Shown here one piece after another: positions 1 to 31,831 of a stretch of DNA of 38,307 bases. The stretch lies in the IMG/VR virus record IMGVR_UViG_2657245439_000017. One strand, given 5' to 3'. Position numbers and translations under genes: made by a program. The DNA is from a virus. Taxonomy: Duplodnaviria; Heunggongvirae; Uroviricota; Caudoviricetes. Numbering within the stretch: the stretch's first letter is position 1; each line of letters starts with the position of its first letter. The notes beneath the pieces were generated by a model. That model saw nothing but the letters and a program-made list of their open reading frames with translations. It was not told the origin of the DNA and did no database searches.

Positions 1-54
1 TAAAAATACTCCCTTTTGAGTGGTTAAAGTACTGAGATAATGTGGGGAGGATTT

Positions 55-80
55 GAGAGATAAACGTTGGTTTGGGAGAA
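55..80. other. hix/gix-like recombination site, left (half-site GGTTTGGGAGAA, core TT at 67-68)
   Basis: Reverse complement reads TTCTCCCAAACC-AA-CGTTTATCTCTC; 14-bp identical inverted copy at 1869-1882; architecture 12+2+12 as in Hin/Gin/Cin sites. Confidence 0.6.
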
Positions 81-428
81 GCGGCGAAAAGGGATGTGGG
101 TACAGGAGAAAATCAGATACCGGATATGTCAGCCTGGAAAAGAGATCCGAGTTCTAATCGCTGGAGAAAATTGCCTGATGGAACCATCATTCAAATGGGA
201 ATATCAGCATCAGGGCCATTAGGCTCACCTGTAAATATCACCCTGCCGATATCTTTCAGCAATACCAATTATTGTGTTGTTGCATCGTACGATAATGCAC
301 GGTCAGGTGTGTCAACAATGGTTAGTTTTGCAGCGTTACCTGTTTCACCATCGCAATTTTCCCTGATGTCATCTGTGACTGAGCAAGGAGTAAATCCTTT
401 TGCTTACTGGATTGCTTTTGGAGATTGA
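72..428 (+). CDS. Alternative tail fiber C-terminal variable domain (Sv'), start-less cassette, silent in this orientation
   Basis: Open frame begins inside the left recombination site with no plausible start or RBS; after inversion it would be fused in frame to the constant part of the fiber gene (shared LGLGE junction). Confidence 0.55.
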   Translation: MGEAAKRDVGTGENQIPDMSAWKRDPSSNRWRKLPDGTIIQMGISASGPLGSPVNITLPISFSNTNYCVVASYDNARSGVSTMVSFAALPVSPSQFSLMSSVTEQGVNPFAYWIAFGD

Positions 429-431
429 TAA

Positions 432-851
432 ATGGACAGATACTTCTATTCACAAAAAGAAAATGGTTTTTTTACCGATTTAAATAAAGCACCTTCAGAT
501 GCTGTTGAGATAACCACGGATGAATGGCTGTCACTACTGGATGGTCAGGATAATGGCATGAAAATAGTCAGCAATCAGGAGGGATATCCGGTTTTGACAG
601 AGCAACCACCTTTATCAAAAGAAAACCTTATTGCATTGGCAGAGTTGAAAAAAGGAAAACTTATTAATGAAGCCAACGAGCACATGAACAGCAGACAATG
701 GCCTGGTAAAGCGGCTATTGGTCGTCTGAAAGGTGAGGAACTGGCGCAATATAATTTGTGGCTGGATTATCTGGACGCACTGGAAATGGTCGATACTTCC
801 GGTGCGCCAGATATTGAATGGCCTACGCCTCCGGCAGTTCAGGCCAGATGA
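432..851 (+). CDS. Alternative tail fiber assembly protein (U'-like)
   Basis: ATG at 432 directly after the Sv' stop; 139 aa with tail-fiber-assembly C-terminal motif (LWLDYLDALEMVDTSGAPDIEWPTPP) shared with the minus-strand U gene. Confidence 0.75.
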   Translation: MDRYFYSQKENGFFTDLNKAPSDAVEITTDEWLSLLDGQDNGMKIVSNQEGYPVLTEQPPLSKENLIALAELKKGKLINEANEHMNSRQWPGKAAIGRLKGEELAQYNLWLDYLDALEMVDTSGAPDIEWPTPPAVQAR

Positions 852-1416
852 CATCCGGCGCAGTGCTGGTATCTGTTGCCGCCACCGCGTCAATGTAATC
901 CAGCACAGCGTTAAGTCGGGTGTTTTCTGGCTGCGTCAGCTTCCGCCCGGCCTGTAATTTCAGCTGAATCAGACTGATGGAAGCCATTGCAGCATCAATC
1001 AGCGACTGGCGCTTTACTTCTGCCGCGTCTAGTGCGGCGCTATGCTGTGCCTCGGTATCCGTCACCCATTTCTCACCATCCCATTTATCGTATGGCGTTA
1101 ACGGTGAAAGCGTGACATAACCGTCTTTGATGGCACCGATATAATCCACTGTAACAGCTGCGCCATTTTCTGTTGAGTAAACAGTCTCATTGCGATGGTC
1201 TTCTTCATGGCTCCATCCCTTACCCGTGAATACTGCCACTTGCCCCGGAATGTATTCGCCCGGGTCAATACCAGTGGAACAGGCGGGCATACTTACGCCA
1301 GTATTAATATATTCATCAGACCAGCCCGTATATTCAGACGTTACTGCATCATAATAATAACAACGCATATCACCCGGCACTGTAGCCATCCCATTTTCAT
1401 CAAAAACAGGTTTCAT
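823..1416 (-). CDS. Tail fiber assembly protein (U-like)
   Basis: 197 aa; ATG at 1416 overlaps fiber stop; C-terminal motif AVLDYIDAVAATDTSTAPDVIWPELP typical of tail fiber assembly chaperones. Confidence 0.8.
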   Translation of the reverse strand: MKPVFDENGMATVPGDMRCYYYDAVTSEYTGWSDEYINTGVSMPACSTGIDPGEYIPGQVAVFTGKGWSHEEDHRNETVYSTENGAAVTVDYIGAIKDGYVTLSPLTPYDKWDGEKWVTDTEAQHSAALDAAEVKRQSLIDAAMASISLIQLKLQAGRKLTQPENTRLNAVLDYIDAVAATDTSTAPDVIWPELPEA

Positions 1417-2864
1417 TATGCAGCCCTCACAATATAATTAAAGGCGATGTTACGTGGACGGTTTTCATTAGCTGTTGGCACGACACGAGAGGCGTCGAAT
1501 CCAAGGTCATCGGTTTTGCCTATAGCAGTTGTGTTATTCGCCATTGTCGCTGATCGTGTTCCTGCATCGTAAAAAGCCCCTCTGATTGCATCAAAAGACA
1601 TGCCGATCCCGCCATCTGCGAATCCCTCAATATTTCTTATTGCATCCCCCTGTGAAGATAATAATTGTCGCCCGGCATCCACACCACGTCCGTCATCCCA
1701 GCCACGAATAAATTCACCGCGTAAATCAGGCAATTTATTTGTCGGGTAAGCCTTTGCCAGTTCCGGGTATTCTTCAGCCGAAAAAGCAGCCCCGTTGCAT
1801 TTCAGCCAGCCTGTCGGCGGCGTAGGTGAAGGCCAAGGAACTGGTACGCCAACAGGCAACGCAGAACCTTCTCCCAAACCAAGGTAATTGAGGACTTCTT
1901 TTATACTGCCCATAGCGATAATAGCGCGACCAATAGCTGTAAGGGTTGTCAGTGCTGCGCGGTCTGCTCCGGTAAAATAAGGCAACCGATCTGCTGCAGT
2001 GGCAAGTCCTGCCAGAGCAGTGAGCGTGGCATCTGCCGGTTGTTTTCCGTTTGCCAGATCGTATGCAGCCTTGACCGCTTTCGGTGTGGCGGCCAGTATT
2101 TCAGACGTGCTGTTGATGTCACTGCTCAATTGTACGGTGCCTTTTGCCGTCAGCGAGGCAGCAGGCACTCCCGTTATCTGACTCCACGGGTGAGTGTGGC
2201 TGACGGGCGCCTTGCCGGCTGCAAGGTCGTATGCAGCCTTGACCGCCTTCGGCGTGGCAGCCTCAGTTTCTGATTGACTGTCCGTGGCGCTGCTCAGTTG
2301 TACGGTGCCTTTTGCCGTCAGTGAAGCCGCAGGCACTCCCGTTATCTGACTCCACGGGTGAGTGTGGCTGACAGGCGCCTTGCCGGCTGCAAGGTCGTAT
2401 GCAGCCTTGACCGCCTTCGGCGTGGCAGCCTCAGTTTCTGATTGACTGTCCGTGGCGCTGCTCAGTTGTACGGTGCCTTTTGCCGTCAGCGAGGCAGCAG
2501 GCACTCCCGTTATCTGACTCCACGGGTGAGTATGGCTGACGGGGGCCTTGCCGGCAGCCAGGTCATATGCAGCCTTGACGGCCTTTGGTGTGGCGGCCAG
2601 CGTTTCAGAGGTGCTGTTGGTGGCACTGCTCAGTTGGGTGAACCCCTTAGCTGTCAGTGTCGCGTCCGGGTGGTTACGGGAACGTACGTGTTCAGCCAGT
2701 GACTGTGCGGCTTCCTCCGTTTTTTTCTTCAGCCATTTCGTCCTGTTTGCCAGTTGCCGGGGGGCTCGATTTGATATCCCGTCTGCACCACCCAGAACCG
2801 GATCTGATGTCTCCAGTTGATAGATATTTTCTTCCCACTTTTCTGTTTCATTCAGGTTTCCCAT
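1416..2864 (-). CDS. Tail fiber protein (S/H-like); constant N-terminal part 1883-2864, variable C-terminal part 1416-1882 inside invertible segment
   Basis: 482 aa from ATG at 2862-2864; N-terminal NRAPRQLANRTKWL and repeated LSSAT..ATPKAVKAAYDLA motifs typical of P2 H / Mu S fibers. Confidence 0.85.
   Translation of the reverse strand: MGNLNETEKWEENIYQLETSDPVLGGADGISNRAPRQLANRTKWLKKKTEEAAQSLAEHVRSRNHPDATLTAKGFTQLSSATNSTSETLAATPKAVKAAYDLAAGKAPVSHTHPWSQITGVPAASLTAKGTVQLSSATDSQSETEAATPKAVKAAYDLAAGKAPVSHTHPWSQITGVPAASLTAKGTVQLSSATDSQSETEAATPKAVKAAYDLAAGKAPVSHTHPWSQITGVPAASLTAKGTVQLSSDINSTSEILAATPKAVKAAYDLANGKQPADATLTALAGLATAADRLPYFTGADRAALTTLTAIGRAIIAMGSIKEVLNYLGLGEGSALPVGVPVPWPSPTPPTGWLKCNGAAFSAEEYPELAKAYPTNKLPDLRGEFIRGWDDGRGVDAGRQLLSSQGDAIRNIEGFADGGIGMSFDAIRGAFYDAGTRSATMANNTTAIGKTDDLGFDASRVVPTANENRPRNIAFNYIVRAA
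1869..1894. other. hix/gix-like recombination site, right (TTCTCCCAAACC-AA-GGTAATTGAGGA)
   Basis: Inverted copy of the site at 55-80; lies inside the tail fiber gene exactly where the two alternative C-terminal coding sequences diverge (after LGLGE). Confidence 0.6.
2040..2670. repeat. Tandem 168-bp (56-codon) repeats inside tail fiber gene, about 3.5 copies
   Basis: Anchor CACTCCCG recurs at 2166, 2334, 2502; protein repeat HPWSQITGVPAASLTAKGTVQLSSATDSQSETEAATPKAVKAAYDLAAGKAPVSHT. Confidence 0.75.
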
Positions 2865-2866
2865 AA

Positions 2867-3445
2867 TCAACTGCTCCCGTGGTTATAACTGCCATCATGG
2901 ATGGCGGTATTGTTATAGCGAATGGCCACAGACTGATACTCCAGGCTGGCCAGATGGCAGCGGGCCGGTGCAAATGCAGCCAGCGTCTGACGCAGCATCG
3001 CGGCCTGATCGTTAGTAATGGGCTGTTTCAGAATAACGCGATAAACTGCCCAGGCGGCTGCATCTCCATGAACAAACAGTCCGTTATAGCTGCGATTGCC
3101 GTCGTAACTGAGACGACCTGTGCCTTCAATCAGATCCACTTCACCAAAGCCAAAACGGCGGATAACTTCCCGGATTGACCACGGCGTCCCTTTATACCGG
3201 TGCAGTTCGATGGCTGCTTTTATAAGCATGCGGCGAACATCGTCCGATTCCGCCAGCTCCCAGCCATCGCCAGACAGTGAGAACTGCTCGCCCAGCCATG
3301 GCAGCGCGGAACTGTCGACGATATCGACGAGAAAGACCATCAGTACGCTCAGGTCGATGTTATCCAGCCGTCCTGCCAGTCTTCCCAGCGTCCTGAGACT
3401 GATATCACCCTCAAGCGGTGGCGGGAGTTGTAATGGCTCAGTCAT
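2867..3445 (-). CDS. Tail protein, P2 gpI-like (Mu gp48-like)
   Basis: 192 aa; position between baseplate J and fiber; family-level resemblance. Confidence 0.75.
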   Translation of the reverse strand: MTEPLQLPPPLEGDISLRTLGRLAGRLDNIDLSVLMVFLVDIVDSSALPWLGEQFSLSGDGWELAESDDVRRMLIKAAIELHRYKGTPWSIREVIRRFGFGEVDLIEGTGRLSYDGNRSYNGLFVHGDAAAWAVYRVILKQPITNDQAAMLRQTLAAFAPARCHLASLEYQSVAIRYNNTAIHDGSYNHGSS

Positions 3446-4541
3446 CAGACACTCCAGTCATGTTAAGAGTGATTGCCGTACAGTTTGCCCATTCGTTTTC
3501 TGCCACCACCCGCAGTGCCGGTGTCACCAGTTCAACCTGGTACACCCCGGAAACGGACAATGCACTGATAATCTGGCTGGGGACAATATCGCGCCCCAGC
3601 GTGGCGGCACGTGATGCCACCCAGTTCTGTATGGCGCTGTTAGCGGCATCTTTTACAGACCTGGCATCCTGATCACGATAGATCGTAATCTTGGCTTCAA
3701 TGGTGTAATCCACCTTCACTGGTGTTTTAGCCCGCACTGTATCAGTGAGTGGCCTGACTTTCTCATCAGAGCAGAAACTCTCTACCAGCGTGAGAACACC
3801 GCCGTCCGGCAGACCGGTACTGAGCAGCGGATACAGATCTACGGTCCCGGGAACCGGGGAAAGCACAGCAACATCGACAATGTTGGGATGGGCCTGCATG
3901 GCATGAAAGCGGTATGCGCCACGGCTTCCGGCATTGGTGAATGACTCCGGGGCCAGCCTGATACGCTCCCGGAGCCTGTCATCGTCTTCCTGTTCTGAAC
4001 CGCCGGAACTGGCCGTCAGATTGCTCACCAGCAGGTCGACGTTATCAATCTCATCGAGTAACTGACTGACCTGCGCAGGTTGCCAGCCGTTACCAGCGGT
4101 ACCGGGTTCGGTACAGGTGGACGTGACATTGACCAGCAGCAATCCGGCCTTCAGTACCACATCTGTATCGGTGGCAAAAATAACGCTGTCGGAAGCGCTG
4201 ACGCGGGTGCCTGCCGGGATCAGCACATCAATGGCCAGTGCCTCATCTACGGAGAACTGGAGCGTGGTAGTGGCAGGCTGCGCGGCAAGACGGTATACAC
4301 CGACCAGTTCACCGAGGTAATCAATCATCGGCTCACGGGCAAAGGCGACCAGATTCTGCTTTGCTGCCTCCTGTACCGCAACCCTGACCAGCATTTCGCG
4401 ATAGGCCCACAGATCAATCAGCAGACGTTCTGCCTGTGCCGGGTACAGCGTTTTGCCGGTATCCGCTTCATACTTCGCAATCATTTCTGCCGTGATTTTG
4501 TCGGCATCGCGTTCAATAAAATCGGGTTCTGTCAGCGCCAT
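3438..4541 (-). CDS. Baseplate J-like protein (P2 gpJ / Mu gp47-like)
   Basis: 367 aa; gene order W-J-I-fiber. Confidence 0.8.
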   Translation of the reverse strand: MALTEPDFIERDADKITAEMIAKYEADTGKTLYPAQAERLLIDLWAYREMLVRVAVQEAAKQNLVAFAREPMIDYLGELVGVYRLAAQPATTTLQFSVDEALAIDVLIPAGTRVSASDSVIFATDTDVVLKAGLLLVNVTSTCTEPGTAGNGWQPAQVSQLLDEIDNVDLLVSNLTASSGGSEQEDDDRLRERIRLAPESFTNAGSRGAYRFHAMQAHPNIVDVAVLSPVPGTVDLYPLLSTGLPDGGVLTLVESFCSDEKVRPLTDTVRAKTPVKVDYTIEAKITIYRDQDARSVKDAANSAIQNWVASRAATLGRDIVPSQIISALSVSGVYQVELVTPALRVVAENEWANCTAITLNMTGVSDD

Positions 4542-4879
4542 AGCAGCTCCTGAGTCCGGGTCTGTCCGTCTGAGCCTTTCCAGCTCACCCGGAGCGTAAG
4601 ATGTTCGCCGTCGACGGCGGGTTTAACTGACATAAGCTGGCAGCGGGGCTCCCAGCGCCGGATGGCATCGACGGATTCGCGCACCACATGCGGAATGGCC
4701 CGGTCTACAGGCCAGTCGATATAAAGATGCAGATTGCTGCCGAACTCCGGGCGATGCGGGTCGCTGCCGCGGGGAGTCCGCAGGATAATTTGAATCGCCT
4801 GCCGGATATCATCCAGCCCCCGGACAATTTCGCCGGGAGCCTGCAGGGTCGGTTGCCAGAATACTGAGGTTGTTTTCAT
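4532..4879 (-). CDS. Baseplate wedge protein, GPW/gp25-like
   Basis: 115 aa; small lysozyme-like gp25 family size and position upstream of J. Confidence 0.75.
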   Translation of the reverse strand: MKTTSVFWQPTLQAPGEIVRGLDDIRQAIQIILRTPRGSDPHRPEFGSNLHLYIDWPVDRAIPHVVRESVDAIRRWEPRCQLMSVKPAVDGEHLTLRVSWKGSDGQTRTQELLWR

Positions 4880-4933
4880 GGGGGCAGTATTGCCCCCGTG
4901 CGGGAACGCTGATATTAAAGGCGTTTAAAAAGC

Positions 4934-5530
4934 TCAGTGGGAGTGGTGGCTGGAGTTTTCGCCATCAGACAACATACTGCCCGTGGCATGGGCATTCCCT
5001 TTAATCTCGATATTGCCATGGATGGTCGCGGTAACACCTTCACCACCAGAACCCGCCATGCCTCCTTCGTAAATCAGCTTACCCCTGACACGCAGATCTC
5101 CGGTAAGTTCGGTTTCCGGTGCGTCAATCGTGGCTTTCTGTGTTTTCAATACCACATCAGCACCACACTCAATGACAATATGCTCAATGCCGCCCCGGAT
5201 GGTCAGAGTGTGCGTCTTCCGGTTGTAGCTGTACTCTGCACCATCAGCAAACCGGGTTCCCCGGATATTTTTGTCACTGAACGGTGGTTTATCGACGTCT
5301 GAATACACCGCGCCCAGAATAACACCATCCTCGCCGTTGGCATCGAGCAGCACCTCAACCTGCTCCCCCACGTCAGGGAGCCAGTAATCTTTGTTATCCT
5401 GGGTATTGCGCTGCAGCACGTTAAGCCAGTTTGTGCGCAGGTTATCGCATTCAGGCAGACGAACGCGGGCCTGAACCCTGTCGGCATCAACGGCACTGAC
5501 CGTACCGACCTGACGAGTGACACCAGTCAT
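4934..5530 (-). CDS. Baseplate assembly/spike protein, P2 gpV-like
   Basis: 198 aa; ATG at 5528-5530; C-terminal glycine-rich beta-helix-like tail ending with His-rich apex (SSHHSH). Confidence 0.75.
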   Translation of the reverse strand: MTGVTRQVGTVSAVDADRVQARVRLPECDNLRTNWLNVLQRNTQDNKDYWLPDVGEQVEVLLDANGEDGVILGAVYSDVDKPPFSDKNIRGTRFADGAEYSYNRKTHTLTIRGGIEHIVIECGADVVLKTQKATIDAPETELTGDLRVRGKLIYEGGMAGSGGEGVTATIHGNIEIKGNAHATGSMLSDGENSSHHSH

Positions 5531-6681
5531 TTTTTCTTCTCCTTAATCACCGTCGATGTACTGCCATCCGGGTGATAAACCGTGAGTTTCTGAGTTTTTT
5601 GTTTTTTCCCTCTTGTGACTGGCCCCCGTGCCACTTCCAGCTCTGTGGTGTAGCCGCTGTTACGGTCAAACGCATGGCGGGCAGTGGTTATGAGCCATGG
5701 CCCGGATAACTGCCCAAAACCCACCAGTTCAATTTTGTTGCCTGCTGTCAGTTGAGGTGTTCCCGTCAGCGTCAGGGAGCCGTTCTGCTGGTATTCGTTA
5801 TGTCTGGCCAGTGCTGAATCCGCTTTAATCCGGGCACTGTCCGGGTCGCTGACGCGGCTGTTAACTTTAAGTGAGTCAGCGCTGGTAACCTTACCACCTT
5901 TGAGCTTTTTGTCGCTTTCACGGGTACCACCATCAGCTTCGTAGACGATCAGTTTTTTACTGCTGCTTTTCTGGTGTTTTACCTTTGCAGATTTATAGAC
6001 CCGGTTGATGGTGTCACGCAGGGAAAAGCGGGCCACATCCTGCGGTTTTAACTGCCTGACCGGCTCCTGACTGCGCAGTGTGGCCAGATGAGAAAAAATC
6101 AGCTGGTCACTGACCACTTTCACTGCATAACCATACTCGCTGGCCAGCCGGCGCAGAAAACCCACGTCGGTTTCAGCATACTGGGTCACCCGGTCGATTC
6201 TGATGGACTCAATGCTGCCCACCAGTTTCAGTCGGTGCTTTCTGGCAATCCGCCCCGCAACAGCTGCCAGCGTGGTGTTCTCAAAACCACGACTGGTTTT
6301 AGTCCGCAGGGCACTGTTAACCGAGGTGGCCACCCCACGGATAGAAACAACGGAAGCGGGCGAACTCACTTCGATCTCGTCTATAGAGAACGTACCGCAG
6401 GACAGCAGCTTCTCGCCCTGATAGCCCATTTTCAGCGTCAGCGTGTCACCCTTGCCCGGATACCATTTATCCAGCCAGCGGCCATCGGTGTCGTCCAGCT
6501 CCACCTCAATGGTATCGGACTCATTTTTGATGTTATCGCTCCAGGTCACACGGGTGACATAAGGCGCGATATCAGAGGTGATGTTTTTCTGCAGATACCA
6601 CAAAGTGAACACCGGTGTCAGCACATCGCTGACGCCGGTTAACGCTGATGTGACTTGCGCAGTGCTGTTTATCTCAGCCAT
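5527..6681 (-). CDS. Tail/baseplate hub protein, P2 gpD-like (late control D family; Mu gp44-like)
   Basis: 384 aa; C-terminal motif LTGTPQLTAGNKIELVGFGQLSGPWLITTARHAFD...GYTTELE characteristic of gpD family. Confidence 0.85.
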   Translation of the reverse strand: MAEINSTAQVTSALTGVSDVLTPVFTLWYLQKNITSDIAPYVTRVTWSDNIKNESDTIEVELDDTDGRWLDKWYPGKGDTLTLKMGYQGEKLLSCGTFSIDEIEVSSPASVVSIRGVATSVNSALRTKTSRGFENTTLAAVAGRIARKHRLKLVGSIESIRIDRVTQYAETDVGFLRRLASEYGYAVKVVSDQLIFSHLATLRSQEPVRQLKPQDVARFSLRDTINRVYKSAKVKHQKSSSKKLIVYEADGGTRESDKKLKGGKVTSADSLKVNSRVSDPDSARIKADSALARHNEYQQNGSLTLTGTPQLTAGNKIELVGFGQLSGPWLITTARHAFDRNSGYTTELEVARGPVTRGKKQKTQKLTVYHPDGSTSTVIKEKKK

Positions 6682-6884
6682 GGGGCAATATCCTCTTCTG
6701 TACGGGCTTCTTCAGCCTCAATCACCGGGATCAGTAACAACAGCCCGGAGGGCAGCACCGGCGTGATGGCCACGTGCGGATTGGCGGCAATAATCCGGGG
6801 ATAGCCCAGCGGGTCACCGTAGTACTGCCATGCCAGCGAATCCCAGCGCTCTCCGTCACGGGTAACATGTTCAAGAAACATCAC
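6669..6884 (-). CDS. Tail protein X-like (LysM-like)
   Basis: 71 aa; YYGDP...IAANP...LPSG pattern resembling P2 gpX. Confidence 0.55.
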   Translation of the reverse strand: MMFLEHVTRDGERWDSLAWQYYGDPLGYPRIIAANPHVAITPVLPSGLLLLIPVIEAEEARTEEDIAPWLR

Positions 6885-7765
6885 ACACTCCTCGTCAGTA
6901 TTCTGGCGGCCATTGCACTTAATCCCGGAGACATGCGGTTGAATGCTGTGCCGGCGGCGTTAAGCTGCCCGGAAACGGTATCCAGAGCACCTGCAATATT
7001 TCTTTTGTCCACACCACTCAGCGCAGACTGTGCCTGCTGTACATACGTGGCTGCTTCGCTGGCTGTTCTGGCCAGACTGATGGCATCGGGCATGGATTCA
7101 GAGAGTGCGTTAAACGCCGGAACACTTTTCCCCAGAGCCCCGGAGATATTACCCAGTCCGCTCATCAGCCCCGGCACACGGGTCAGTGCGACAACGGGGT
7201 TATCCTTCATTTTCTGTGTCACCCGAACGGCGCTGATAGTGGTCTGGAGTACAGACTGCGCCTGTTTCGCATAGTTGACGCCGTTGCGGATGAACTGCGC
7301 CACCCCTGAAGGTGAAGGTATGGCACCGGAGACCGCCCCGACACCCGGGAGCTTCGTGCGTATTGCCGGTGGTTGCAGAGGATTTTTCGGGTCACCGGTG
7401 TATTCCCGGAGAGACACGGTGGCACTGACAGCCAGCACGTTGCCGGTACTGTCAGTCTGCTCGCTGGTTGCAGTCACATCGGTAATCACGAACCAGCCGC
7501 GATAGTCACCGTTGCCGAAGACCAGCGCCAGTGCCTGATGGGCTTTCATGGCTGTTCGCAGTCTCGCCAGCTCCACATCGGGTACACAATAATGCTGATG
7601 GAAAACCAGAGTTATCTGGATTTCGTCCAGCCTGTCGCCGACGAACTGCAGGCCAGGCTTACCCCCGATGCGGGCATGCTCCGCATAATCGACGCCGAAC
7701 GTGGCCTCGAAGCCGTCCCAGTAGGTAATCAGCTCAAACTCAATATCACCCAGTACGGCAAACAT
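6881..7765 (-). CDS. Tail protein with gpU-like N-terminal domain (Mu N / DNA-circularization-like position)
   Basis: 294 aa; N-terminus AVLGDIEFEL...GGKPGLQFVGDRLDEIQITL resembles P2 gpU family; located directly downstream of tape measure. Confidence 0.6.
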   Translation of the reverse strand: MFAVLGDIEFELITYWDGFEATFGVDYAEHARIGGKPGLQFVGDRLDEIQITLVFHQHYCVPDVELARLRTAMKAHQALALVFGNGDYRGWFVITDVTATSEQTDSTGNVLAVSATVSLREYTGDPKNPLQPPAIRTKLPGVGAVSGAIPSPSGVAQFIRNGVNYAKQAQSVLQTTISAVRVTQKMKDNPVVALTRVPGLMSGLGNISGALGKSVPAFNALSESMPDAISLARTASEAATYVQQAQSALSGVDKRNIAGALDTVSGQLNAAGTAFNRMSPGLSAMAARILTRSV

Positions 7766-10716
7766 CAGCGGTACTCCTTACGTTGTTTCTGAGCCAGCAG
7801 ACGCTCCAGCATTTTTTCCAGCTCATGCAGACTCATATTCAGGGCACCAGTCAGTCCTGCAGGCGCTGTGGTTTCCCTGCCATTGAGGAAAAACTGAGGA
7901 TTAAAGCTGACCTGGATACCACCAGACGTTCCACCGCCGGTTGCAGCTGCACCACGGCCTGAATATCCGGCAGCCAGGATTTCAGGCGAGGGGATACGGG
8001 GAACATCCGGTGTCATCTCATTTGCCAGACGTTGCCCTGGTAAAATCGATGCCCGGGTGGAGAGCGGAATAGCGGGCATGGAAGACAAACTATTGATTAC
8101 GGCTCCGATCGCATTTTTAGCAGACGACATAAACCCATTGATATCGGGCAACGGCATACTGAAGCGAACACCTGAAGTGTTATCCCGTATTTCTGGCCCC
8201 TGGATGCTCACGGGCATTCTGGGGAGCAGTTCACTGGCCATTCGCTGCCCGGCCAGAGCTGCAAGCGGAGTGGTCCGCTGCAGGCCAATGGCGGCCCCCT
8301 GCGCGATATTGTCACCAAAGCCCATAAACACGCGGCTCGGCGAATGAATGCCCAGCTTTTCGCTGAACCAGCCACTGATGCTGTCACCCATTCCGGTTAC
8401 ACTGGATTTGAGCGACTCCCATTTGTTTTTGATACCGTTAATCAGACCATCGACAAGATGGCCACCGAAGTCGGTAAACTTTGCCGGCAGATCAACACCA
8501 AGATATTTCAGCGCAGCTGCAAAGGCTTTATAGAGCAGACCTGCCGGCGACCAGTTAATCAGCAGCTTACCAGTTCCCGCGATACCGCCGTTAAAGGCTT
8601 CCTGAATGTCAGCCCAGCACTGTTTAAACCAGCTACTGATGCTGTCACCCATTCCGGTTACACTGGATTTGAGCGACCCCCATTTGTTTTTGATACCGTT
8701 AATCAGACCGTCGATAAGATGGCCACCGAAGTCGGTGAACTTTGCCGGCAGAGCAACGCCGAAATATTTCAGCGCAGCCGCAAAGGCTTTATAGAGCAGG
8801 CCTGCCGGCGACCAGTTAATCAGCAACTTACCAGTTCCCACAATGCCGCCGTTAAAGGCTTCCTGAATGTCTGCCCAGCGCTGTTTAAACCAGCCACTGA
8901 CTGCCCCCCAGTTGCGGTAGATAAGGTAAGCTGCTGCCGCGACAGCGGTGATAACGAGACCGATGGGATTCATCATCAGCGCACGTCCAATCCAGAGAAC
9001 AGCACGTCCGGCGAGCATAATTCCGCGAACCAGCCCCCCGGAGAGCACGCCACTCAGTGTTCTGGCTCCTCTGGCGACGGCGCTAAATCCGGTCACCAGC
9101 CAGCGGAGCTTACCGCCTTGCCCCAGTGCGAGCGACAGACGAAGCCAGTTGGCCCGAAGTAAAACAGCATTTTTCCAGACACTTACAAAGGGGGAAATAA
9201 GGAGATTCAGCCCCAGTTTGAGACCAACAGTCGCTATCTTAATCGCAAGGAGCGCACTGATGAGCTTAAAAGCCCCACTGACAAATTGCGGGTGAGTCGC
9301 TACCCAGTGTTTTGCCCCCTGAATGAGTGGAAGCAGTTCCTGAGTCAAAGAAATAAAAGATGGAGCTAATTGATCGCCCAGCGTAATTGCCAGATCGCGA
9401 CTGCTGACCATAAGTGTTTTAGTGGCTTCAAGGGGAGATTTCAGCCGCTGATCATAAGCACTGGCAAGCAAATCGTTATCCGCAGCCCTGAGAGCACCGG
9501 CACGGATCTCTCGATATCTGTCCATGTTGGCCAGCATCGGGCGGATAAATGCCATGACCTGCATATCCGCGAACATATCGCCCAGACCAAAGTTTTTCGC
9601 CAGAGCCTGAAGTGCCTCATCTCTTGCCGTATCATTCTTTATTTTCATGGCTGATTTGAAGCCGGCCAGCGCTTCGGGGCTTTTGGCATTGAGGTAACGT
9701 TCTATAACACTCAACATCCCTTCAATCGGAGAGATCCCCGCAGCTTTATAACTCGCAATAGATCCCTGCAAATCAATACCCAGATCAGCAAACTGTTTCT
9801 GAGTATCGCGGGCAAAAATTTTGGTAAGAAAGTTTTTAAAATTATTGGCTGCTTCGTCGGTGGAACCTGCACCGATTTTTGCTATCTGGAGACTGGCCCC
9901 GATTTCAGCAACAGCCTCTTTTCCACTGGCAATACCCGCCATCATTGGGGCCAGGGACTGCATCCACTTGACCTGATCCGGGATTTCAAATGACCCCTGG
10001 TCACCGGCATAAGCCATAATATTCTGAACGGCACCAAAATCTCTGGCCGCACCTTTCAGGGAGTTTTGCCAGACTGCGGCCACTTTTGCCCAGTCCTGAG
10101 CAGACGTGCGTGTTGCCGTTGCCGCGCGGGCAATATCCGGCATCAGAAAACCGATATCTGACACATTATCAATATTGTCGCTGATGAGTGAACCCACCGC
10201 CTCCTGCAGCTCATCCTGATACTGATTGTATTTAAGCGCCCAGCCTTTTATCTGTCCGGCAAGTCCATCCCGCGTTTTATTGTCATATTTTGCGGTGATC
10301 GACATATCAATCATTTTGTCCTGAAAAGACATGGACTGCTGAACGGCAGGGGAAACCGTATGATAAACAGTCTGTGCCATGCCATACGCTTCAATCCCCT
10401 GACCATACAGCGCCATGCGGTTAGCTTTCAGCGCATCACTGGTAGCGGATGCCGCTGACAGACGGCGCTGCTGGCGCTCAATTTGCTCCATGGTGCGGCT
10501 TACCCGCAGCAGCTCGCTGTTGAGATGCTGCATCCGGGAAGAACCCAGTTGACCATAACGTTCTGTTGCACGGGTTAAAGCGTTCTGACGTTCCTGCAGG
10601 CGGCGTGAGGTATCGCTCAGGGAATCAAGCGCACGGCGGGTACCGCTCATTGCAGAACGGAATGTGCTGCCAATCATCCCGCCGATAACAACGCCGACTG
10701 AAAACTGTCCCGACAT
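7765..10716 (-). CDS. Tail tape measure protein
   Basis: 983 aa, largest gene in tail operon, downstream of chaperone pair; GGAGG RBS before ATG at 10716; hydrophobic segments and internal repeats. Confidence 0.85.
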   Translation of the reverse strand: MSGQFSVGVVIGGMIGSTFRSAMSGTRRALDSLSDTSRRLQERQNALTRATERYGQLGSSRMQHLNSELLRVSRTMEQIERQQRRLSAASATSDALKANRMALYGQGIEAYGMAQTVYHTVSPAVQQSMSFQDKMIDMSITAKYDNKTRDGLAGQIKGWALKYNQYQDELQEAVGSLISDNIDNVSDIGFLMPDIARAATATRTSAQDWAKVAAVWQNSLKGAARDFGAVQNIMAYAGDQGSFEIPDQVKWMQSLAPMMAGIASGKEAVAEIGASLQIAKIGAGSTDEAANNFKNFLTKIFARDTQKQFADLGIDLQGSIASYKAAGISPIEGMLSVIERYLNAKSPEALAGFKSAMKIKNDTARDEALQALAKNFGLGDMFADMQVMAFIRPMLANMDRYREIRAGALRAADNDLLASAYDQRLKSPLEATKTLMVSSRDLAITLGDQLAPSFISLTQELLPLIQGAKHWVATHPQFVSGAFKLISALLAIKIATVGLKLGLNLLISPFVSVWKNAVLLRANWLRLSLALGQGGKLRWLVTGFSAVARGARTLSGVLSGGLVRGIMLAGRAVLWIGRALMMNPIGLVITAVAAAAYLIYRNWGAVSGWFKQRWADIQEAFNGGIVGTGKLLINWSPAGLLYKAFAAALKYFGVALPAKFTDFGGHLIDGLINGIKNKWGSLKSSVTGMGDSISSWFKQCWADIQEAFNGGIAGTGKLLINWSPAGLLYKAFAAALKYLGVDLPAKFTDFGGHLVDGLINGIKNKWESLKSSVTGMGDSISGWFSEKLGIHSPSRVFMGFGDNIAQGAAIGLQRTTPLAALAGQRMASELLPRMPVSIQGPEIRDNTSGVRFSMPLPDINGFMSSAKNAIGAVINSLSSMPAIPLSTRASILPGQRLANEMTPDVPRIPSPEILAAGYSGRGAAATGGGTSGGIQVSFNPQFFLNGRETTAPAGLTGALNMSLHELEKMLERLLAQKQRKEYR
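8372..8893. repeat. Tandem duplication, 2 x 261 bp (87 codons), inside tape measure gene
   Basis: Near-identical DNA copies at 8372-8632 and 8633-8893; protein repeat WFKQ(R/C)WADIQEAFNGGI(V/A)GTGKLLINWSPAGLLYKAFAAALKY(F/L)GV. Confidence 0.75.
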
Positions 10717-28884: not shown

Positions 28885-30654
28885 ATGAATGCTGCCCTGA
28901 CTGAACGACTGGTTTATGTCGCCCGCGCGGCACGTGACGCGGGGCATGGTAAACGCGGTGCAATATACGACGCTGCCTGTGCTGAACTTGGCATGTCCCG
29001 CGCCACTCTGCTGCGCAGGCTGAAGGAGGTCTCTGTGACTGATAAACGCAAAAAACGCGCTGATGCCGGACGCAGCGCCCTGACCCGCGACGAAGCCGCG
29101 CTGATATCTGCCACACTGCGTGAGGCCACCCGCAAGAACGGTAAACGCCTCTATTCCATCGCAGATGCAGTGGAAACCCTGCGGGCTAACGGCTTTATCA
29201 CCGCAGGCAGAACAGATGAAACCACCGGTGAGTTTTTCCCGTTGTCTGAAGATGCCATCAGCCGTGCTCTGCGTAACTATGGCCTGCACCCGGAACAACT
29301 GGATGCTCCTGCACCGCATACCGAAGTGGCCAGTCTGCACCCCAATCATGTCTGGCAGATTGACGCCTCACTCTGCACGCTTTACTACCTGAGCAATGGA
29401 CATAAAGGGCTGCAGGTGATGGACAGCGCGAAGTTCTACAAGAACAAGCCCGCTAACCTTGCCCGTATCGCCAGTGACCGCGTGTGGAGTTACGAGATTA
29501 CCGACCATGCCAGCGGCTGGATTTACGTTGAGTATGTGACGGGCGCGGAATCAGGTGAGAACCTGTGTTCTGTGCTTATCAACGCCATGCAGGAGCGTGG
29601 CGGCGCAGACGTGCTGCACGGCGTGCCAAAAATACTCTATCTCGACCCCGGCTCGGCAAACACCGCGGGTATGACGAAAAACATGTGCCGCTCACTGGGC
29701 ATCGACCTGATAGCGCACAAGCCGCATAACGCCCGCGCCACCGGACAGGTGGAAAAGGCGCGGGACATTATCGAACGCAAGCTGGAGCCGGGTCTGAAGT
29801 TCCGGCCGGTTCACAGTCTGGAAGAACTCAATGCGCTGGCCGCGAAATGGCGCAGCCACTTTAACGCCACGGCTGTTCACAGCCGCCACGGTAAAACCCG
29901 CACGGATATCTGGCTGAAGATTACTGCTGAGCAGCTGAAAAAAGCGCCTTCCGTTGAGGTATGTCGTGAACTGGCTGTGGCGGCACCAGAACTCCGCAAA
30001 GTCACGCCAAAACTTCGTGTCTCGTTCCGGGGCACTGAATTTGACGTATCAACGGTACCGGGCGTACTGGTCGGTGAAAAACTGATGATTACCCGTAACC
30101 CGTGGCGCAGCGATGTGGCACAGGTGGTTCTGACCGGTGAGGACGGCCACGAGACGTTCTTCCTGGTCGAAGAAGTCAGAAAGAACGAGTTTGGCTTTGC
30201 TGAAGGCGCGGCGGTATTTGGCGAAAGTTACAAAGCCCTGCCGGAAACCCCGGCGCAGATGGCGGCAAAAGAAACCGAAGCGCTGGTCACCGGTACAGAC
30301 AACGCCGCAGATGCAGCTGCCGCACGCAAGGCGAAGGCGCTGCCGTTCGGCGGGCGGCTTGACCCATATAAACATATTGATGACGCCACACTTCCGGCCT
30401 ATATGCCGAAGCGAGGTCAGGCCTCTGACGTACGCGGGCCGCGCACTGAACAACGTCCCATGACTCATGTGGAGGCCGCGAAAGCCCTGCGCGATAAGTT
30501 CAGCGCCGACGGCCTTACCTGGACGCCGGAACATTACCGCCAGTTAACGGCACAGTATCCGGACGGCGTACCGGAAGCCGCACTGGATGAAGTCATGGCC
30601 ACGCTGACCACGCCGGCCCGCAGCAGCGTTATCAGCATTGTTAACGGCAACTGA
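28885..30654 (+). CDS. DDE transposase (retroviral-integrase-like core; phage transposase A equivalent)
   Basis: 589 aa; candidate catalytic triad in HVWQIDAS, LYLDPGSANT and ATGQVEKA; N-terminal HTH region; GGAGG RBS. Confidence 0.85.
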   Translation: MNAALTERLVYVARAARDAGHGKRGAIYDAACAELGMSRATLLRRLKEVSVTDKRKKRADAGRSALTRDEAALISATLREATRKNGKRLYSIADAVETLRANGFITAGRTDETTGEFFPLSEDAISRALRNYGLHPEQLDAPAPHTEVASLHPNHVWQIDASLCTLYYLSNGHKGLQVMDSAKFYKNKPANLARIASDRVWSYEITDHASGWIYVEYVTGAESGENLCSVLINAMQERGGADVLHGVPKILYLDPGSANTAGMTKNMCRSLGIDLIAHKPHNARATGQVEKARDIIERKLEPGLKFRPVHSLEELNALAAKWRSHFNATAVHSRHGKTRTDIWLKITAEQLKKAPSVEVCRELAVAAPELRKVTPKLRVSFRGTEFDVSTVPGVLVGEKLMITRNPWRSDVAQVVLTGEDGHETFFLVEEVRKNEFGFAEGAAVFGESYKALPETPAQMAAKETEALVTGTDNAADAAAARKAKALPFGGRLDPYKHIDDATLPAYMPKRGQASDVRGPRTEQRPMTHVEAAKALRDKFSADGLTWTPEHYRQLTAQYPDGVPEAALDEVMATLTTPARSSVISIVNGN

Positions 30655-30664
30655 GGAGGGATAC

Positions 30665-31831
30665 ATGCTGGTACTGAAGCAGCAACTGAAAGAGGCCCGT
30701 ATTCCACAGGCGGTGGTGGCGAGAGCTGTCGATGTTTCTGAGGCCACGCTGGCCCAGATTGTGAATCATAACGCGTGGCCCCGCACCAGCCCCGGAGAAG
30801 TGCGCCGGCGTCTTGCGTCCTGGCTGGAAAGTCAGGGGATTGATACAACGAAGAGTTTTGATGCTGTACAGGGCGCGGCCACGCCCCGTACAGCGGGTAC
30901 CACAGATAAAACGAGCCTCAGTGAGGAAGAGAATATGTTACTCAAAAAACAGGTGTTATTTCCAGCAACCAAAAAAGCGTTTGGTCTTTTCCGTGACCCG
31001 TTCGCCGACGAAGCCATGCAGGGTTCTGATGATGTGTTCACCACTCCGGACATTCGCTACGTGCGTGAGGCGCTGTACCAGACAGCCCGTCATGGTGGGT
31101 TTATGGCCGTCATCGGTGAGTCCGGTGCGGGTAAATCCACGCTGCGCCGTGACCTGACTGAACGTATCAACCGCGAGAATGCGCCGGTGATTGTTATCGA
31201 GCCATACATCATCGCTATGGAAGACAACGATGTGAAAGGGAAAACCCTGAAGGCAGCAGCGATTGCCGAAGCCATTATCAGTACCATCGCACCACTGGAA
31301 AGCATCAGACGCAGTCAGGACGCCCGCTTTCGCCAGCTGCATCGCGTCCTGAAAGACAGCAGCCAGGCGGGGTTCAGCCACGTTCTGGTGATTGAGGAGG
31401 CCCACAGTCTGCCCATTCCGACACTGAAACACCTCAAACGCTTTTTTGAGCTGGAGTCCGGTTTCAAAAAACTGCTGTCCATCGTACTGATTGGCCAGCC
31501 GGAACTGGCGACAAAACTGTCTGAACGCAATATGGAAGTCCGTGAAGTCGTTCAGCGCTGTGAGGTGGTCGAACTTCTGCCTCTGGACAATAACCTTGAA
31601 GAGTTTCTGACGTTCAAACTGCAACGGGCCGGTAAACAACTGACGGACATTATGGACGCCAGCGCAGTGGATGCCATACGTGCCCGCCTGAGCAATCCGG
31701 GAAGTCATCGTAAAAATATGGTCAGCCTGCTGTATCCGCTGGCCGTCAGTAACCTGGTAATAGCCGCCATGAATCTGGCCGCTGAAATCGGGGTTCCACA
31801 GGTCAACGCTGACGTTGTCAAAGGGGTTTAA
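30665..31831 (+). CDS. Transposition ATPase / target DNA activator (Mu B-like)
   Basis: Walker A GESGAGKST, Walker B-like HVLVIEEAH; N-terminal HTH; ATG 30665 with GAGGAGGG RBS right after transposase stop. Confidence 0.85.
   Translation: MLVLKQQLKEARIPQAVVARAVDVSEATLAQIVNHNAWPRTSPGEVRRRLASWLESQGIDTTKSFDAVQGAATPRTAGTTDKTSLSEEENMLLKKQVLFPATKKAFGLFRDPFADEAMQGSDDVFTTPDIRYVREALYQTARHGGFMAVIGESGAGKSTLRRDLTERINRENAPVIVIEPYIIAMEDNDVKGKTLKAAAIAEAIISTIAPLESIRRSQDARFRQLHRVLKDSSQAGFSHVLVIEEAHSLPIPTLKHLKRFFELESGFKKLLSIVLIGQPELATKLSERNMEVREVVQRCEVVELLPLDNNLEEFLTFKLQRAGKQLTDIMDASAVDAIRARLSNPGSHRKNMVSLLYPLAVSNLVIAAMNLAAEIGVPQVNADVVKGV

Follow-up and report, generated by a model that had tools for sequence, protein, structure and literature searches.

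Organization of the tail-fibre locus

The viral DNA stretch IMGVR_UViG_2657245439_000017 (IMG/VR; Caudoviricetes) was analyzed over its whole length of 38,307 nucleotides (nt), hereafter called the window. Near its left edge, between positions 55 and 1894, lies a tail-fibre locus that is proposed to be an invertible segment. It is about 1.8 kb long and contains two convergent cassettes, each made up of a fibre C-terminus and its own assembly chaperone, with a 26-bp crossover site at either end (Table 1). An original prediction, made from the letters of the sequence alone, had described two inverted sites of a 12+2+12 architecture flanking about 1.8 kb, and between them two alternative fibre C-termini with two cognate assembly genes. 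Both descriptions hold: the sites lie at 55-80 and 1869-1894, and the DNA between them encodes one Collar end, one Gp53-like_C end and two Caudo_TAP genes.

In the orientation found in the window, the annotated ATG of the fibre gene corresponds to position 2864, and the gene runs leftward through a constant part into the Collar-type end. The Gp53-like_C frame at 69-428 has neither a promoter nor a start codon of its own, and it is read only once the segment has flipped. All four cassette open reading frames (ORFs) are intact, and the two chaperone genes converge with an overlap of 29 nt.

Table 1. Coordinates of the proposed invertible segment, its crossover sites and the adjoining features.
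Feature	Position	Strand	Description
Invertase leader	1-54	-	ATG of a 190-amino-acid gene directly left of position 1 in L002 and L010
Left (invertase-proximal) crossover site	55-80		Outer half-site 55-66, core TT/AA 67-68, inner half-site 69-80
Silent alternative fibre C-terminus (Sv'-like, Gp53-like_C)	69-428	+	Pfam PF21882, E = 7e-14
Chaperone of the silent cassette (U'/TfaP-like, 139 amino acids)	432-851	+	Caudo_TAP, E = 1.1e-25
Chaperone of the expressed cassette (U/TfaE-like, 197 amino acids)	823-1416	-	Caudo_TAP, E = 5.4e-26
Expressed variable fibre C-terminus (Sv-like, Collar)	1416-1880	-	Collar PF07484, E = 9.5e-15; 150 amino acids past the shared part
Right (in-fibre) crossover site	1869-1894		Inner half-site 1869-1880, core AA 1881-1882, outer half-site 1883-1894
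Fibre constant N-terminal part (Sc-like), outside the segment	1881-2864	-	Phage_fiber_2 x4, E = 6.6e-73
Tail-fibre gene, whole	2864->1416	-	Four Phage_fiber_2 repeats and Collar; 482 amino acids in the window orientation

Crossover sites

The left site reads GAGAGATAAACG-TT-GGTTTGGGAGAA on the plus strand, which in reverse complement is TTCTCCCAAACC-AA-CGTTTATCTCTC, and the right site reads TTCTCCCAAACC-AA-GGTAATTGAGGA. The two are thus mutually inverted, follow the same 12+2+12 plan and share the same AA/TT core; they are identical at 17 of 26 positions overall and at all 14 positions of the inner half-site and core. This 14-mer has exactly two copies in the window, one per strand, at a chance expectation of 0.20 matches when up to two mismatches are allowed; a chance inverted repeat was considered as an explanation of the sites and rejected. 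The right site was predicted to sit inside the fibre gene where the alternative C-termini diverge, and this is precisely its place: it falls at the exact divergence point of both ends, after ...NYLGLGE at residue 334, so that inversion swaps the tip in frame. Homology between the cassettes of different phages starts at approximately position 60, within the outer half-site 55-66.

Inversion in silico and in nature

When the interval 69-1880 was flipped in silico, the fibre remained in frame. The shared part of 334 amino acids (...IKEVLNYLGLGE) continues into a 150-amino-acid Collar end in the window and into a 115-amino-acid Gp53-like end in the flipped form, for which the window predicts a fibre of 447 amino acids followed by the 139-amino-acid chaperone. 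A search of a large protein collection with this flipped fibre retrieved a protein of 503 amino acids (P0009), which is identical to the predicted one except for a single substitution (V to A) and one extra 56-amino-acid repeat, by which it exceeds the window-based prediction. It is encoded on contig L012 (GCA_003983815.1), where the prophage of the window is present with the Gp53-like-ended fibre and the 139-amino-acid chaperone in line, the 197-amino-acid chaperone and the Collar cassette on the opposite strand, and the same invertase as the other copies described below.

The 1812 bp between the cores in L012 are the exact reverse complement of window positions 69-1880 (0/1812 mismatches), the flanks match window positions 1-68 and 1881-2300 with 0 mismatches, and the breakpoints are exactly the sites at 55-80 and 1869-1894. 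The perfect match of the inverted interval, together with the identical flanks, means that inversion at the predicted crossover occurs in nature. A sister assembly, L011, contains the prophage at the same insertion site in the orientation of the window, and its left flank is identical to that of L012 across all 1215 nt available. The inversion in L012 is very recent and precise and took place at the predicted crossover points. Both orientations expected of such a switch were looked for, and the second exists as this precisely inverted natural copy, so that the lack of an inverted form can no longer be held against the original prediction. Orientation also differs further afield: for the same cassette (95-96% identical), phage SKA5 and e14 have the orientation opposite to that of the window and of a P2-like prophage (L003), relative to the invertase and fibre.

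These observations bear on two other accounts of the locus. The segment might be a frozen relic, the orientation differences among phages being ancient events or the outcome of cassette exchange; the degenerate outer half-site of the left site, the fact that five out of six prophage copies share one orientation and the visible decay of one copy (L008), in which an IS66-family element lies in the second chaperone gene, would all fit such a history. We regard it as very improbable: L011 and L012, with their common insertion site and identical 1215-nt left flank, differ by an exact 1812-bp inversion, whose 0 mismatches make the event very recent and so argue against a relic, and the four cassette ORFs and the invertase are all intact.

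The inversion in L012 might instead have arisen by RecA-type recombination between short inverted repeats, or be an artefact of assembly, given that the flipped form is known from a draft assembly and that the repeats have 17 identical bases in common. This is harder still to credit than a relic. Seventeen bp is far below the length of efficient RecA substrates, the breakpoints fall on Din-type 26-bp sites with a dedicated invertase adjoining them, and repeats as short as these neither break nor confuse short-read assemblies; being too short to mislead assembly, they leave the orientation in L012 to reflect real molecules.

The adjacent invertase

The original prediction placed the invertase gene outside the window, and indeed no serine recombinase was detected within the window by tblastn with the neighbouring invertase (best E = 0.39). 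Exactly the 482-amino-acid fibre of the window is encoded in two assemblies. L010 (GCA_001266385.1, contig JHTH01000005.1) is identical to window positions 1-8864 (0 mismatches) and thus extends the locus past the left edge, where the missing gene had been suspected. There it encodes a protein of 190 amino acids with Resolvase (E = 8e-51) and HTH_7 (E = 1e-12) domains, whose ATG is at the base directly left of position 1 and which is read away from the segment. A Shine-Dalgarno-like GGGAG (the reverse complement of 9-13) is located 8 nt ahead of this ATG, and the prophage ends only about 79 nt past the stop codon of the invertase.

The invertase gene is intact, and its product aligns with the sequences of the Gin crystal structures 4M6F and 3UJ3 over residues 1-181 (E = 2e-93). 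Aligned with Gin, the protein shows the catalytic S9 as well as K46/R47/K50 and Q150/R153/L154. The latter two groups are the counterparts of Hin K47/R48/K51 and Q151/R154/L155, which are conserved specifically in Fis/enhancer-dependent invertases (PMC3798978). The same invertase adjoins the segment in L002, L008, L010, L011 and L012, and it is also found in phage 503046.

The original prediction had left two sources of inversion side by side, a gene beyond the left edge or a host invertase acting in trans. The first is present, and a trans-acting enzyme need not be invoked. It is nevertheless conceivable that most flipping is the work of a trans-acting, host-resident invertase of the Pin/Gin family, from an e14, P2-like or P1-like prophage, and not of the adjacent gene. 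The inner half-site and core are the same as in the e14 and P2-like prophage segments, genomes with any match have a median of 2 and up to 18 related places, and trans inversion of the e14 segment has been reported for PinQ of prophage Qin (PMC12529663). Against this stands the intact Gin-like invertase that adjoins the segment in every copy examined (those five named above), which is the canonical cis arrangement; mainly trans-acting inversion is unlikely on this count, if less so than a relic.

Interpretation and proposed mechanism

The anatomy of the segment, the preservation of the reading frame, the intact adjacent invertase and the natural inverted copy are direct observations, and, leaving aside the candidate enhancer taken up below, all the sequence-testable defining features of a Din/Hin switch with the architecture of Mu G, P1 C and e14 P are present. 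We propose, with a probability of roughly 0.93, that the region 55-1894 is an invertible host-range segment of the Mu G, P1 C and e14 P kind, carried by a transposable, Bcepmuvirus-like Escherichia coli prophage.

Several points weigh against this proposal. The outer half-site 55-66 (GAGAGATAAACG) is unusually degenerate, with only 4 of 12 positions matching the inner half, and it lacks the TC that the half-sites of e14, P1 and Mu have at the equivalent position; taken alone, its sequence would suggest weak binding, a concern that is countered by L012, in which these same sites have recombined. The minus strand of 1-120 yielded no sigma-70 consensus promoter that would serve the invertase. Nor can enhancer function be separated from coding constraint in the conservation and the degenerate Fis pattern at nt 19-90 of the invertase gene. 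Searched with the flipped junction, 5,426 complete E. coli genomes never showed this constant part joined to a Gp53-like end, a search of low power in that only three of these genomes have the constant part at all. Finally, L012, a draft assembly, is the only natural flipped copy found.

The region of the invertase gene just mentioned, which lies outside the window, is homologous to the annotated enhancer of P1 and matches P1 at 54, Mu at 55 and e14 at 57 of 72 positions. The same stretch codes for the catalytic N-terminus, which is conserved, and identity at third positions shows no clear increase; the similarity is consistent with a candidate enhancer and is no proof of one. A consensus scan of 1-3000 for sigma-70 promoters and terminators gave counts not above those of shuffled sequences.

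The operation of the switch may be pictured as follows, with the established behaviour of Gin, Cin, Pin and Hin as the basis (PMC3798978, PMC3575834). Transcription of a leftward, minus-strand late tail operon would run through the constant part of the fibre (2864->1881) and then, beyond the site at 1869-1894, enter the cassette that happens to face the constant part, which in the window orientation would yield the 482-amino-acid fibre with its Collar-type tip and the 197-amino-acid chaperone. Dimers of the 190-amino-acid serine invertase would bind both 26-bp sites, which by analogy would synapse on a Fis-bound enhancer in supercoiled DNA. The invertase would then cut with a 2-bp stagger at the AA/TT cores, rotate the ends by 180 degrees and religate them, leaving 69-1880 flipped, the constant part continuing in frame into the Gp53-like tip (447 amino acids here) and the 139-amino-acid chaperone behind it. 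A population of lysogens could in this way release phage with two receptor specificities. The Fis/enhancer-dependent invertasome and the change of host range in this scheme are inferred from what is known of the family.

The prophage and its related copies

The element is a transposable prophage, whose left end lies about 652 nt beyond the left edge of the window and whose right end is at approximately position 35834. Among its genes are those for a transposase with an rve domain (28885-30654), a MuB-like AAA ATPase (30638-31831) and a portal of the Mu type, beside baseplate and tail genes of the P2 type. The deposited phage closest to it is PhiKM, classified as a Bcepmuvirus, with 98.5% identity over 91% of the structural region; the PhiKM record is partial, contains neither the segment nor the invertase and is of no use as a reference for the switch. 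Insertion sites differ among strains: the prophage adjoins dosC/dosP here, ygcP in L002, csiE in L008 and, in L011 and L012, a GpJ-like gene.

The prophage ends in L010 and in the window read TG...CA, with an apparent 6-bp duplication, AATACG, at window positions 35835-40 and at the left junction of L010. Beyond the prophage, a dosP-like ORF (PAS-PAS-GGDEF-EAL, 36292-38307) stops at the last codon of the window inside its EAL domain (Pfam EAL 3-81 of 236). Compared with dosP of strain E2348/69 it spans 2474 against 2475 nt at 99.8% identity, which suggests a one-base frameshift, either a real pseudogene or an error of the draft assembly.

The constant part of the fibre contains 168-nt (56-amino-acid) tandem repeats (about 2044-2659, about 3.7 units) whose copies are 81-90% identical. 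Their number varies among near-identical prophages, the fibre having 482 amino acids in the window, L010 and L011 and 538 in L002 and L008. Several database entries for these fibre proteins bear the name "short-chain fatty acid transporter", an evident error that has spread among E. coli records.

In L008 (NZ_CP025856.1, strain 504838; 1600-7900) the prophage copy is decaying or rearranged. The IS66-family element there (about 2.7 kb) splits the second chaperone gene, and a third crossover-type site (TTCTCCCAAACC-AA-CGTTTTTATGCC) is accompanied by an extra copy of the Collar-type cassette in direct orientation to the in-fibre site. In phage 503046 (L007, CP025887.1; 1256-2896) the invertase is 100% identical and the constant part is related. 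The segment is shorter (about 1.6 kb) and has different cassettes, both ends of which seem to be of the Collar type, and its inner half-sites, TTCCCCCAAACC and TTCTCCTAAACC, are slightly different. This points to wholesale replacement of cassettes at the sites within one phage lineage.

Significance

Tail-fibre switches operated by Gin, Cin and Pin have been described since the 1980s, and the system is to this extent already known; the locus is another clean example of it. A Bcepmuvirus-like E. coli prophage whose terminal gene block is a switch of this kind may not yet have an explicit description, although the arrangement is to be expected of a Mu-type genome. The cassettes themselves circulate widely among E. 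coli prophages and are common in deposited phages.

Three practical consequences concern annotation, assembly and host range. An ORF annotated as a "gp53-like domain-containing protein" beside the recombinase is a silent alternative fibre end and not a separate gene; assemblies of the same prophage may legitimately differ by this 1.8-kb inversion; and two fibre tips have to be considered in any prediction of the host range of this phage.

A wider role is a speculative and rather doubtful extension, in which the flip might also serve the lysogenic host and cross-talking Pin-family invertases might form a network, flipping one another's segments and passing cassettes between phages of unrelated type. 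A fibre-derived protein created by inversion of e14 is reported to block the adsorption of T2 (PMC12529663), and the network idea is drawn from half-sites identical to those of e14 and P2-like prophages. If true, the cross-talk would involve several Pin-family invertases per genome and phage types as different as Mu-like, P2-like and lambdoid phages and P1 plasmids.

Comparison with known inversion systems

The sites had been predicted to be of the gix/hix type, and direct comparison with the records of Mu, P1 (NC_005856, with annotated cixL and cixR) and e14 of E. coli K-12, from which the reference sites were read, agrees with this. By site sequence the closest relative is the P segment of e14, whose in-fibre site, TTCTCCCAAACC-AA-GGTTTTCGAGAG, and pin-proximal site, TTCTCCCAAACC-AA-CGTTTATGAAAA, have an inner half-site and core identical to those of the window at both boundaries. 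The pin-proximal site and the invertase-proximal site of the window are identical at 21 of 26 positions. The layout is also the same, with a fibre constant part, two convergent Sv+Tfa cassettes that overlap by 29 nt as in the window, and an invertase pointing away, and the DNA of e14 is 85-89% identical to the window cassettes over parts of the segment. Inversion of the e14 P segment has been demonstrated by sequencing and polymerase chain reaction (PMC4272514) and has been studied functionally (PMC12529663). The two differ in their carriers: the e14 element is lambdoid and defective, and its fibre has decayed (the stfE pseudogene), whereas the prophage described here is transposable and apparently complete, its fibre being intact and its baseplate of the P2 type. 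The constant part and outer half-sites of e14 also differ from those of the window.

By invertase sequence, Mu Gin is the closest relative among those compared. The sites of Mu, gixL (TTATCCAAAACC-TC-GGTTTACAGGAA) and gixR (TTCCTGTAAACC-GA-GGTTTTGGATAA), share with those of the window, as do the P1 sites, the 12+2+12 plan and an AAACC-NN-(G/C)GT centre. Both Mu and the element described here are transposable phages with the same gene order (Sc - Sv - U / U' - Sv' - invertase pointing away) near the right end of the phage. The G segment of Mu is longer (about 3 kb against about 1.8 kb), gixL and gixR form a perfect inverted pair whose core is GA/TC where the window has AA/TT, and the fibre cassettes of Mu are unrelated to those of the window at the DNA level; com and mom lie past gin in Mu, whereas in the window prophage the invertase stop is followed by about 79 nt.

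In P1, cixL in reverse complement is TTCTCTTAAACC-AA-GGTTTAGGATTG and cixR is TTCTCTTAAACC-AA-GGTATTGGATAA; the latter resembles the in-fibre site of the window, with an AA core common to both, and the constant part of P1 S has repeated elements as does the window fibre. P1 is a plasmid prophage with a C segment of 4.2 kb, and its cin points towards the segment, cixL overlapping the 3' end of cin, whereas the invertase described here points away. Hin, which acts on the H segment of Salmonella, belongs to the same recombinase subfamily and uses the same 26-bp site plan, and its Fis- and enhancer-contact residues are conserved in the adjacent invertase; it differs in that it flips a promoter and not coding cassettes, and in that hin is located inside its own segment.

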